DNA of 64,000 bases, taken from Methanothermococcus sp. Ax23 (GTDB lineage Archaea > AGJL01 > Methanococci > Methanococcales > Methanococcaceae). The number at the start of each line of letters is the position of its first letter. The stretch's first letter is position 1. The stretch covers positions 64,001-128,000 of the forward strand of contig NZ_CP157522.1 in NCBI RefSeq assembly GCF_049075655.1, written 5' to 3'. This document shows positions 1,262-62,387 of this stretch, piece by piece. The position numbers and the translations under genes are program-made. The notes beneath the pieces were generated by a model. That model saw only the letters and a list, made by a program, of their open reading frames with translations. It searched no databases and was not told where the DNA came from.

Positions 1262-2836
1262 ATGAAATTTACAGATGCAATATTAGATTTTTTAATGGAA
1301 AATAATATAAAAACAGTTTTTTCATATCCTGGGGAGCAGATTCTTCCATTGTATAATGCCCTAAATGAATCATCTATAAAAAATATAATGGTCAGGCATG
1401 AACAGGGAGCTCTACACATGGCAGATGGATACAGCAGAATTACAAACTATGTTGGAGTATGTTTGGCAACTGCGGGACCTGGTGCTACAAATTTGATGAC
1501 AGGCGTTGCTACGGCATACAAGGATTCATCATCTGTAATTGCCATTACTGGAAGATGCGAGCGAAAATACATAAATAAGAATTATTTTCAAGAAATGCAA
1601 ATGGATTTTTTAAATATATATAAAGGATACTTTGTAGATAAACCAGATGTAAGTTATTTCAAGAATGCACTTTCTGAAAGTTTAAATAGTAAAAAACCCA
1701 TTCATTTAAATGTCCCAAGTGATGTTCTTAAATTGGATGCAGATGATTACTCCACTAAATATGATGATGATAAAGATGAAGACATAAACTTAAAATGTGG
1801 CATAAATATAAAAGATATTAAAAATATTAAGGATATTAAAAAGCCATTATTGCTTATAGGTCAGGGCATTTATGGAACCTTATCATACAAAGAAATGCTG
1901 AAAATAAATAATATATTAAAAAACAGTAATATCCTCATTACAACAACCTATCCTGCAAGGGGAGTTATCGACGAAAAGGATAAAAACTGTTTAGGATTGA
2001 TTGGAAGAAGAGGAAACTTTATAGCAAATAAATACCTTTTGGAATGTGATGCCATATTTTCAATTGGTGCAAGTTTTTCATACAACACAATACCTGAAAG
2101 TATCCGAACAGAAGTTTTAAAGAAAATAATTGATTTAGATGCCAAAATTAATAATTTAAACGACATTAAGGCTTTGATTGACGCGTTAAATGATTTAAGG
2201 CATAGTTATACCCATGTAAATACAGATGGTAGCAATAAAGAAGACATTAGTAAATATAATTATAAATTAGACGAAAACCGAAGGTTTTCGTTGCTCGCTT
2301 GCTATCACAAGCGATTAGGTGATTATTCCCTAAAAATTAAGGAGATACTGGATAATTTACCAGATGACGCAATAATTACCACAGATGCTGGAAATCATAC
2401 GGTTTTTGTATCATTATTAAAAAAATGCGTAGTCCCAAGAAATATTATTTCATCTCACAGTATGGGAACCATGGGATTTGGACTTCCAGCTTCAATTGGA
2501 GTTAAATTTGGATGTTTAGATTATAACATTAATAGAGAAGTAGTTTCAATAAATGGTGATGGCGGTTTCCAGATGAATTTGCAAGAGCTCGCAACAGTAT
2601 CGGAAAATGATTTAAAAATACTTATTGTAATAATGAAAAACAACAGATTAAATGTATTTGGAGATATAAAGAACCCAGATTTCAACAAAATAGCAGATGC
2701 TTATGATATTGATAATGTTTATATAGAAGATATTGATGAGATAAGGGGAAACATAAAATATTATTTAAATAATAACAAACCTTATTTGATGGTAGTTGAA
2801 TGTGAAAATGAGGGGCTACCTAAACCTTTTGTTTAA
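1262..2836 (+). CDS. Thiamine diphosphate-binding acetolactate synthase large subunit-like protein
   Basis: YPGEQILP, RHEQGA.HMADGY, TAGPGATN, GTMGFGLPASIG and GDGGFQMN motifs; carries a 48 bp in-frame insertion. Confidence 0.9.
   Translation: MKFTDAILDFLMENNIKTVFSYPGEQILPLYNALNESSIKNIMVRHEQGALHMADGYSRITNYVGVCLATAGPGATNLMTGVATAYKDSSSVIAITGRCERKYINKNYFQEMQMDFLNIYKGYFVDKPDVSYFKNALSESLNSKKPIHLNVPSDVLKLDADDYSTKYDDDKDEDINLKCGINIKDIKNIKDIKKPLLLIGQGIYGTLSYKEMLKINNILKNSNILITTTYPARGVIDEKDKNCLGLIGRRGNFIANKYLLECDAIFSIGASFSYNTIPESIRTEVLKKIIDLDAKINNLNDIKALIDALNDLRHSYTHVNTDGSNKEDISKYNYKLDENRRFSLLACYHKRLGDYSLKIKEILDNLPDDAIITTDAGNHTVFVSLLKKCVVPRNIISSHSMGTMGFGLPASIGVKFGCLDYNINREVVSINGDGGFQMNLQELATVSENDLKILIVIMKNNRLNVFGDIKNPDFNKIADAYDIDNVYIEDIDEIRGNIKYYLNNNKPYLMVVECENEGLPKPFV
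2266..2318 (+). mobile_element. 43 bp double-hairpin micro-insertion with 5 bp target-site duplication (ATTAG)
   Basis: ATTAG|ACGAAAACC-GAA-GGTTTTCGT TGC TCGCTTG-CTATCA-CAAGCG|ATTAG; removing 48 bp leaves an intact reading frame. Confidence 0.75.
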
Positions 2837-13937: not shown

Positions 13938-14219
13938 CACGAATCATTAGGCAGGAAGCCCACGATTTCAATCGTTATACAAAACAATGTTTTGTAAAAT
14001 CTCTTACGAGATGGGAGGAATGCCAAAAAATTTATATAACATAGATGGTATAATAATAGTTAAGCCCTAAGGCACGAAGCTCGATAGAGTGGATACGGTT
14101 AAAAGGGTTTATTATTAAGAATAATATAGGGTTGCCTGTCAGCCAGCCTAATGTCCTCCGCCCTAATTATTAAGGGAGTTGGAAGGGCAAGCCAACGGAT
14201 TTATCCGTTGGTAGCTGAC
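13938..14219 (+). mobile_element. Non-autonomous IS200/IS605-family derivative (both end hairpins, no tnpA/tnpB)
   Basis: Left hairpin GAAGCCCACGAT-TTCA-ATCGT..GGGAGGAATG (interrupted) and right hairpin AAGCCAACGGAT-TT-ATCCGTTGGTAGCTGAC; no ORF between; boundaries approximate. Confidence 0.7.
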
Positions 14220-61873: not shown

Positions 61874-62387
61874 TTAATTTTTGTTTTTTAATTCATCCCT
61901 AATCTCTTTTAAAATTTCTTTCATTTCGTTCTGTCCTTTTATTATAGTTTCTTGCCCTTTTTTAACTTCTTCCAAAATTCCAAATATCATTTTAATATAT
62001 TTAACTCCTTCATCAAGTTTTTTATTCAATCGGAGTGAGCGAAGCGAACGGAGAGCTACGAAAACATTGGTTTTCGTTCAATTCCATTAAATCATCCGCT
62101 GATATTCTATTGATTCCTTTTGGAAATTCAATATATGAATTTAGTTCTTTTTCCTCAATCTCTTCTATTTTGATTAACTCATCCTTTTTTGCCAATGTCT
62201 TAATATTTCTTTTGAATAAATCTTTTATTTCTTCATCATCAAAGTTTGCCAAAATCCTAACTGTTCCATCCTCATAATTATAAACTACTCCATCAATACC
62301 TAAACCTCTCCCAATGTCTTCTATCCTATCTCTAAATCCAACATGCTGGACTTTACCATATATTTTTAACTCGTAAGTTGTCGCCAT
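61874..62387 (-). pseudogene. Acylphosphatase-domain/coiled-coil protein interrupted by a micro-insertion
   Basis: [16 protein letters not shown]; removing 52 bp restores a 153 aa ORF ending ..[21 protein letters not shown]. Confidence 0.8.
62026..62082 (-). mobile_element. 47 bp double-hairpin micro-insertion with 5-6 bp target-site duplication (ATTGA/ATTGAA)
   Basis: Minus strand: ATTGA|ACGAAAAC-CAAT-GTTTTCGT AGCTCTCCGTTCGCTTCGCTCACTCCG|ATTGA. Confidence 0.8.

Follow-up and report, generated by a model that had tools for sequence, protein, structure and literature searches.

A 52-nt hairpin-bearing unit has split an acylphosphatase-like gene in the 64,000-nt stretch of DNA analysed here (the window, in whose coordinates features are given unless a genome is named). 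The unit belongs to a family that is a mobile, modular hairpin micro-element of the Methanococcales. Pairs of filled and empty sites show what is inserted: TTRR, hairpin, linker, module 2 and a final A (or G), placed between a purine and a TT-like sequence with nothing duplicated, the exchange point being the same in all cases. Membership of this family accounts for the split gene in the window and for 16 extra residues in a TPP enzyme. We refer to the genome under study as G000 (1.67 Mb, 32% G+C) and to its closest complete relative, a sister species, as G012.

The element at 62026–62082 and its host gene

Read on the minus strand from 62082 to 62026, the element is ATTGA / ACGAAAAC-CAAT-GTTTTCGT / AGCTC / TCCGTTCGCTTCGCTCACTCCG / ATTGA. 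Its parts, and those of a second copy in the window, are as follows.

61874..62387, minus strand: split host gene, acylphosphatase-like (ORF calls, Pfam)
62026..62082, minus strand: whole feature as the earlier note gave it, with left pentamer, element and right pentamer (sequence reading)
62030..62081, minus strand: inserted unit of 52 nt, comprising TTGA, hairpin 1, AGCTC, module 2 and A (filled/empty-pair rule; removal of 52 nt mends the ORF)
62058..62077, minus strand: hairpin 1, 20 nt with an 8-bp stem, ACGAAAAC CAAT GTTTTCGT (pattern match, fold)
62053..62057, minus strand: linker AGCTC, covarying with the pentamer ATTGA (pentamer–linker tally)
62031..62052, minus strand: module 2 (TCCGTTCGCTTCGCTCACTCCG), 22 nt, GC-richer, direct-repeat-like, with no stable hairpin (fold)
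2266..2318, plus strand: second window copy, comprising ATTAG, hairpin 1 (2271–2291), TGCTC, hairpin 2 (2297–2313) and ATTAG (sequence reading, fold)
2267..2314, plus strand: inserted unit of the second copy, 48 nt, in frame (junction rule)
1262..2836, plus strand: TPP-enzyme ORF (524 aa) that contains the second copy, with the element between its TPP_enzyme_M and TPP_enzyme_C domains (Pfam)

The acylphosphatase-like host gene (62387 to 61874, minus strand), one of three such paralogs in G000, now consists of two ORFs of 121 and 51 aa. Deleting 52 nt in silico gave a single 153-aa ORF without any other lesion, reproducing what the earlier note had reported. The Acylphosphatase domain (aa 6–87; Pfam) lies entirely upstream of the insertion, and the tail of 51 codons, which is out of frame, had no Pfam match. 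The 52-nt unit explains the split gene: it shifts the frame after the catalytic domain and cuts off the 51-residue tail. The target was a stretch of Leu-Asn-Lys-Lys codons, GAA|TTGAATAAAAAA.

Several features that the earlier note had described for both window copies can be read directly in the sequence, namely a hairpin followed by WGCTC, an end in CG and the sense orientation relative to the host gene. The same note had assigned the two copies differing second hairpins. This holds for the copy at 2266–2318, which folded into two strong hairpins (z = −5.3/−5.6; 0 of 200 shuffles as good), whereas module 2 of the copy at 62026–62082 is not a convincing hairpin: the centroid contained hairpin 1 only (z = −1.5; 11–14 of 200 shuffles as good). 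Module 2 of the latter type also occurs at G000 positions 567636, 1008600 and 1287619. The hairpin pattern matched twice in the window (2271–2291 and 62058–62077), compared with 0 matches in 100 shuffles. No Rfam family was found in the window, and the element showed no similarity to CRISPR repeats.

The palindromic hexamer GAGCTC is common in this DNA. It occurred 83 times in the window (1–64000), or about once per 770 bases, against 3.1 occurrences expected and a maximum of 8 in shuffles. Around the element at 62026–62082 it lies within small inverted repeats such as CTGAGCTCAG and GGAGCTCC. It was absent between 49854 and 60945, a stretch in which its absence may be a mark of foreign DNA.

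A modular family with covarying pentamer and linker

Scanning G000 for the pentamer plus hairpin gave 207 candidates, 91 of which also carried a family linker; 39 of these 91 sit in five larger repeated units and 52 remain outside. The unit plan is TTRR, a perfect hairpin of 17–26 nt with an A-rich 5′ arm, a 5-nt linker, a variable module 2 of 14–22 nt and a final A, replaced by G in some array units, for a total length of 44–57 nt. Pentamer and linker covaried: ATTAG went with TGCTC (36 copies), ATTGA with AGCTC or AGCCC (12) and ATCAG with TACTC/T/G (12). The seven bases RTTRRRY fit all three of these subfamilies. We tried to read the covariation as a simple pentamer–linker base-pairing code in the style of the IS608 guide and cleavage site, and by reading there is no register in which such a code suits every subfamily. 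Some units form head-to-tail tandems, for example four directly after a stop codon at G000 195.8–196.0 kb.

Among 40 genomes of the order, the strict motif was present in 13 and a looser one in 14, covering four of the five genera, and a reversed control pattern had no matches in any of the 40. Looser-motif counts were 46 in G000, 40 in G013, 10 in G010, 8 in G003 and 8 in G020; the seven genomes of genus g3 had none, and G012 had seven matches, of which 2–3 are apparently spurious. When we scanned 185,579 species, the motif was found at 35 loci. Four of these were titled Methanocaldococcus, Methanocaldococcaceae, Methanothermococcus or Euryarchaeota, and the other 31 were single matches in unrelated taxa (30 bacteria and one Nitrosopumilus), which we read as chance. 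A scan of viral contigs with the family motif returned nothing, nor did metagenome scans in which the flank and an element variant each served as query.

Two further observations concern variation among units. Units that are otherwise alike carry the loop of hairpin 1 either as CGAAGG or, in the opposite orientation, as CTTCGG (G000 66271 and 947099 versus 130893 and others), and hairpin 1 appears to have been copied from either strand. At G000 420847 and 1360207 and at G012 1016976–1017060, module 2 (ACCTTCATTTCATTCAGGTG) provides a GGTGAT ribosome-binding site just upstream of start codons; the G012 locus has two such units in tandem.

Filled and empty sites define the junction

Empty alleles were present in paralogs and in related genomes. 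The site occupied in the split host gene was empty in 12 of 14 homologs, from five genomes. Comparison of G000 with the whole G012 chromosome gave six clean sites filled in G000 and empty in G012 (G000 50754, 475890, 567636, 1008600, 1043363 and 1064237), plus a four-unit array, and protein alignments bore out gaps of 16 and 19 residues at filled/empty sites. The junctions follow a constant pattern. An empty GTTCC corresponded to a filled GTTGA...ATTCC (left...right); GTTCG, as deduced from synonymous codons in G012, corresponded to GTTAG...ATTCG; and at the G012 copy of the 62026–62082 type, GTTAA had become GTTGA...ATTAA. Even at targets that had no more than A or AT in common with the pentamer, the left side was ATTAG or ATTAT, and the right side was the untouched target.

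The insertion was as long as the unit with 0–1 nt extra, and the exchange point always lay after the first base of the pentamer; two sites had one extra A beyond the strict rule (51 versus 50 nt and 48 versus 47 nt). Left and right pentamers differed at 10 of 13 filled/empty sites, the left one being the family's own, and the target TT was kept at only 7 of the 13. The earlier note had taken the flanking pentamers for a 5-bp duplication at an ATTNN target. That interpretation has to be given up: the pentamer is part of the element and covaries with the linker, the exchange falls between its first and second bases, and duplication amounts to nothing or to a single base.

The target resembles the start of the unit itself. 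The 12 bases downstream of the insertion point matched the unit's first 12 at 76 of 156 positions. Random sites gave 44.8 ± 5.6 matches, and none of 20,000 trials reached 76; mimicry at positions 5–12 alone had p ~0.0009. The site struck in the host gene, A|TTGAATAAAAAAC, is nearly identical to the first bases of subfamily-1 units (TTGAATAAAAATC). On the complementary strand, TC is the unit's first dinucleotide in all 13 defined cases; there the unit is positioned after ..AA and ends in the hairpin followed by CTAA, TCAA or CTGA.

Copies inside genes

At least 15 independent copies lie within ORFs. Eight are internal in-frame insertions of 45, 48, 48, 48, 57, 57, ~48 and ~48–51 nt, adding 15–19 residues, and two internal insertions, of 52 and 47 nt, shift the frame. 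Another 5–6 copies are C-terminal, where they either take the place of the final residues or lie directly against the stop codon, and five lie in 5′ leaders. In one in-frame copy, ATTAT replaces ATTAG just where TAG would be in frame. Because the surviving intragenic copies are mostly multiples of three in length or sit at the C terminus, they are probably translated rather than removed, with disruptive copies having been purged, as has been described for the coding palindromic repeats RPE of Rickettsia and MJRE of Methanocaldococcus jannaschii (PMC2229807, PMC2996958).

The earlier note had also raised an orientation bias. Among curated intragenic copies, ~14 were in sense and 2–3 in antisense orientation. 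An automated count over 40 scorable copies found 24 co-oriented with and 16 opposed to predicted ORFs (p = 0.27), that is, no overall bias, and because this count is unbiased we read the sense excess in genes as survivorship, not mechanism. Cumulative GC skew was weak and orientations were mixed with respect to the replication strand.

Age of the insertions and a copy shared with the sister species

No pair of independent copies exceeded 92% identity; identical copies in G013 and G020 are parts of larger repeats. G012 carries the same 47 nt (47/47 identical) at the same codon of another acylphosphatase-like paralog. That gene is syntenic with an empty G000 paralog at 1057 kb and contains two further frame breaks and a stop. 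In the tree it paired, at 100/100 support, with an empty gene of G003 as its sister, and the filled G000 gene was nearest to another empty G003 gene. Over 80 flanking bases, the two filled genes had 9 differences, and the probability of 0/47 against 9/80 is ~0.01. In a gene-conversion test, the two filled genes grouped together at the informative sites close to the element (9 X versus 32 P overall), and the paralogs are mosaic throughout. Two histories would account for this: two separate entries of one variant into the same look-alike site, or a single old insertion that was reshuffled between mosaic paralogs.

The insertion had been called recent on the grounds of the otherwise intact host gene, and the 92% ceiling and the shared 47 nt in G012 do not bear this out. 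The related proposal of an active family of ~45 bp modular insertions stands as far as the family goes, with units of about 45–57 nt; activity is not supported, given how far the closest independent copies have diverged and that no Y1, Y2, Helitron-like, Rep or reverse transcriptase (RT) gene was found in G000. In a strain check, three DNA-type runs (X1–X3) carried the filled form. Apparent empty reads in this check proved to be paralogs, their source contigs having 7–11 other differences. In one RNA run, reads touched only another copy's module.

Micro-elements in TnpB transposons and other resident mobile DNA

A 1.3-kb multicopy gene of G000 is the TnpB of an IS200/IS605-type IS, and its ten copies differ by micro-elements. 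Seven of the ten have a 47-nt unit near the 5′ end that splits the ORF into 81 + 342–358 aa, compared with 392–393 aa in empty copies. In-frame units are present as well, one of 48 nt in three gene copies and one of 45 nt in a single copy. Three TnpB copies and about 20 MITE derivatives (~23 sites; for example, G000 contig C1 487311, 524419 and 1505742) contain a 51-nt double-hairpin insertion in the RE/guide-RNA (omega-RNA) region; this insertion is found in most copies of the TnpB IS and the ~250-bp MITEs, and copies without it exist too. A second TnpB IS, with three copies, has three different units at three points of its left end. The micro-elements themselves are not termini of resident IS elements, an origin that the earlier note had named as the finding that would overturn its case. 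Micro-elements have remodelled TnpB transposons at their ends, in the guide-RNA region and in the reading frame, which bears on the decay or adaptation of RNA-guided nucleases.

The frameshifted TnpB copies (G000 C1 1279053, 1504471, 1125179, 894325, 1075706, 130705 and 1499509) are the most numerous and the most alike. The TnpB IS/MITE family has a left-end module of another pentamer–linker class, which is present at window position 13979 (G000 77979) as a GTTAT-ACAAAACAATGTTTTGT-AAAAT hairpin with CTCTTACGAGATGGGAGG after it.

Other mobile DNA in G000 includes a DDE_Tnp_1 IS in seven copies and two 97%-identical, 2-kb IS607-like elements (C1 46658–48671 and 1510565–1512578), which are absent from G012 and encode a MerR-type serine recombinase of 184–209 aa and a TnpB of 435–438 aa. 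We considered the IS607-like element as a partner of the micro-element and set it aside, as its ends show no similarity to the latter. A gene block without a G012 match at C1 ~280800–303000 holds an empty paralog at 290 kb and an 1186-aa protein that by eye resembles the large replication protein of a small contig, C2 (7.7 kb); the block may be an integrated plasmid-like element.

Search for the enzyme

The Y1 TnpA family (PF01797) had no matches in G000, although the same search matched in six genomes as a control, and none in G013, which has 40 element copies. Y1 TnpA is intact in G020, G028 and G015, where it adjoins a TnpB homologous to that of G000, and broken in G025, G010 and G003. Y1 genes or relics were thus present in 6 of 40 genomes. 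All six belong to the 14 that carry elements, and none of the 26 element-free genomes has Y1, in a set of kin that are not independent; this co-occurrence may only reflect IS elements with embedded copies. RVT_1 had no match in G000. Neither did Y2_Tnp (PF04986), the Helitron-like family (PF14214) or Viral_Rep, and these three blanks are weak, as the controls for all three were silent.

A Pfam scan of 45 ORFs flanking element clusters found no HUH gene, and inspection by eye of the 142 of 1543 G000 ORFs without a G012 match gave no obvious candidate enzyme. Contig C2 was considered as a source of an HUH Rep and rejected, since its ORFs by reading show one large primase-helicase-like protein. 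The hairpins of related and resident IS200/IS605 elements (CACCGCCC.. and CCCCACCCGTAAGGG..), those in G020, G028 and G015 and those of the two TnpB IS families of G000, differ from hairpin 1. The trans-acting enzyme of HUH/REP type that the earlier note had suggested is still the best guess, and no known transposase family can so far be tied to the copies.

How the units may move

We give about an even chance to the following account: the units are a family of non-autonomous hairpin micro-transposons that was moved in trans by an HUH-type enzyme now gone, the copies within genes are translated, and those in G000 are relics. The strand with the ...hairpin-YYAA 3′ end would be cut and rejoined as single-stranded DNA. 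The enzyme that cut and joined it would be of the HUH type (Y1, IS200/IS605- or REP-like) and supplied in trans, and it would join the unit between a purine and a TT-like sequence resembling the unit's own first dozen bases, without target duplication. Loss of this enzyme from G000 would have left the present copies behind. We infer single-strand cutting and joining by an HUH enzyme because the units have no terminal inverted repeats and no target-site duplication and because the hairpin adjoins the cut. We counted for the HUH link the accumulation of units at the termini of IS200/IS605-type TnpB elements and their co-occurrence with Y1, and against it the lack of Y1 in G000 and G013, the differing IS hairpins, the loose target, the extra A at two sites and the variable module 2.

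A bolder version, which we put forward tentatively and regard as rather doubtful, is that these are the first archaeal REP-like single-strand micro-transposons, of 44–57 nt. Target mimicry of their own cut site and hairpin arm would then explain how the same 47-nt variant came to lie in the same Leu-Asn-Lys-Lys codons of two paralogs in two species, and the mover would be either an IS200/IS605 TnpA acting on a foreign hairpin or an unrecognised enzyme common to the Y1-less G000 and G013.

Conservative site-specific recombination could yield similar junctions if a small circle or tandem form, with A|TTRR at its module 2–hairpin junction, were crossed with an R|TT look-alike by a tyrosine or serine recombinase (XerA-like, with integron-like G|TTRRRY logic, or an IS607-type TnpA). 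Such a process would be consistent with the reciprocal swap of the first base at the two junctions in three cases, with RTTRRRY fitting all three subfamilies, with tandem arrays such as the four units at G000 195.8–196.0 kb, and with the two IS607-like copies, and their MerR-type serine recombinase, that G000 has and G012 lacks. We nevertheless consider it unlikely. The IS607-like ends are unlike the micro-element, a double-stranded circle of 44–57 bp is too small for bending, and by reading the element is without an inverse core complementary to RTTRRRY, unlike an attC site; moreover, several targets share the first A only, which a recombinase that needs an identical overlap would not tolerate. 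Alternatively, there might be no dedicated enzyme, with replication switching template into an existing (tandem) copy and returning at microhomology with the element start. The similarity between target and element 5′ end does vary, with 1 to about 10 matches in 12 nt. Composite repeats of several hairpins are common, as are tandem arrays, and the hairpin loop occurs as both CTTCGG and CGAAGG. This route is also improbable, however, given that the left junction falls at the same base however little homology there is and that pentamer and linker covary. In addition, two families of the order share the motif down to the single base, and the control pattern had no matches, which implies a factor that reads sequence.

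The perfect ATTGA and ATTAG repeats flanking the two window copies, and the seven-copy DDE_Tnp_1 IS in G000, would suit an ordinary MITE that depends on a DDE transposase and duplicates a 5-bp ATTNN target. The evidence from filled and empty sites makes this very unlikely: the pentamers differ at 10 of 13 sites with the left one being the family's own, and an insertion measures the element length plus 0–1 nt; the element also lacks terminal inverted repeats, and its pentamer covaries with the linker. A different kind of explanation holds that the element is neutral to its host gene, the 153-aa protein still being made through intron-like removal at the RNA level or a ribosome hop with take-off and landing at TTG. 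The absence of other lesions in the G000 gene, the matching TTG codons that flank the 52 nt, and the fact that the 7 of 10 TnpB copies with the frameshifting 47-nt unit are yet the most numerous are in keeping with it. We find it hard to credit, as 8 of 10 internal insertions keep the frame, which would be needless if they were removed, and ATTAT stands in place of ATTAG in a copy whose TAG would otherwise be read in frame. In G012, the gene that carries this insertion is broken by a stop and by two additional frame breaks, and the fold shows no helix joining the two junctions, as a BHB intron needs. The acylphosphatase domain, finally, is complete upstream of the insertion, and truncation may be tolerated. 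For the HUH account, the joining rule makes concrete predictions that can be tested with oligonucleotides and the 144-residue transposase from relatives.

Comparison with known systems

By reading, the opposite strand of the micro-element is like Helitron/IS91, as judged by the Helitron end rule, in its TC start (13/13), hairpin-CTRR end (6/13), position between A and T or C and lack of duplication; it is unlike them in being hundreds of times smaller and in that subfamily 1 ends in TCAA, not CTRR. The integron attC site has an inverse core, RYYYAAC, which pairs with the core GTTRRRY, and is served by an IntI integrase; in the micro-element RTTRRRY is core-like with the cut following its R, and by reading there is no inverse core. 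In fungal mitochondria, double-hairpin elements, GC clusters and byps likewise invade both coding and non-coding DNA; they span a few dozen bases with two hairpins, no enzyme is known for them, and byps are bypassed in translation. These elements are organellar and unrelated in sequence, and the frame statistics of the micro-element argue against bypass.

Like IS200/IS605 elements and PATEs, the micro-elements have no terminal inverted repeats and no target duplication, carry a subterminal hairpin by the cut, and enter targets resembling their own end. Known PATEs are far larger than 44–57 nt. The context is also similar, as TnpB-only IS copies and MITEs of the IS200/IS605 family are abundant in G000. 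Unlike IS200/IS605 elements, however, the micro-elements have a hairpin 1 that differs from the IS hairpins, a loose target and no TnpA in G000. For the comparison of end structures we used the features of IS608 and REP given in PMC3333891. In a survey of 172 archaeal genomes, the only Y1 proteins reported were of the IS200 type (PMC6006769).

The REP/BIME–RAYT system of bacteria consists of hairpins with a short tag 5′ of the foot, in dispersed copies or arrays, which are thought to be mobilised in trans and persist after loss of the enzyme (PMC3333891). REPs are extragenic, and they typically flank the gene for the Y1 HUH enzyme, RAYT. The micro-elements likewise have a conserved tag, RTTRR, 5′ of the hairpin foot, many copies, clusters and arrays. 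By contrast, RTTRR differs from the GTAG and CGTC tags, the hairpin is succeeded by a linker and a second module, many copies are intragenic, and G000 has no RAYT.

In coding sequence, the micro-elements are like the Rickettsia palindromic elements (RPE) and MJRE1–3: all are in-frame palindromic additions, here of 15–19 residues, and MJRE comes from the same archaeal order. MJRE units are reportedly ~100 bp long. Unlike RPE and MJRE, the copy at 62026–62082 and the 5′ copy in TnpB break the frame. In-frame coding palindromic repeats have been described as RPE and MJRE (PMC2229807, PMC2996958), the latter in Methanocaldococcus jannaschii genes by Suyama et al. 2005, as cited in the same two papers; a further paper gives generic palindrome counts in Methanocaldococcus (PMC12306157). 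The earlier note's description of an undescribed system was therefore overstated, with in-frame palindromic repeats in M. jannaschii genes in print since 2005. Hairpin repeats in genes are already known, in Rickettsia and M. jannaschii; what this family contributes is base-precise filled/empty sites and the exact joining rule that they give. The rule bears on how the catalogued in-gene hairpin repeats may enter, by way of a fixed exchange point, no duplication, a self-like target and covariation of tag and linker.
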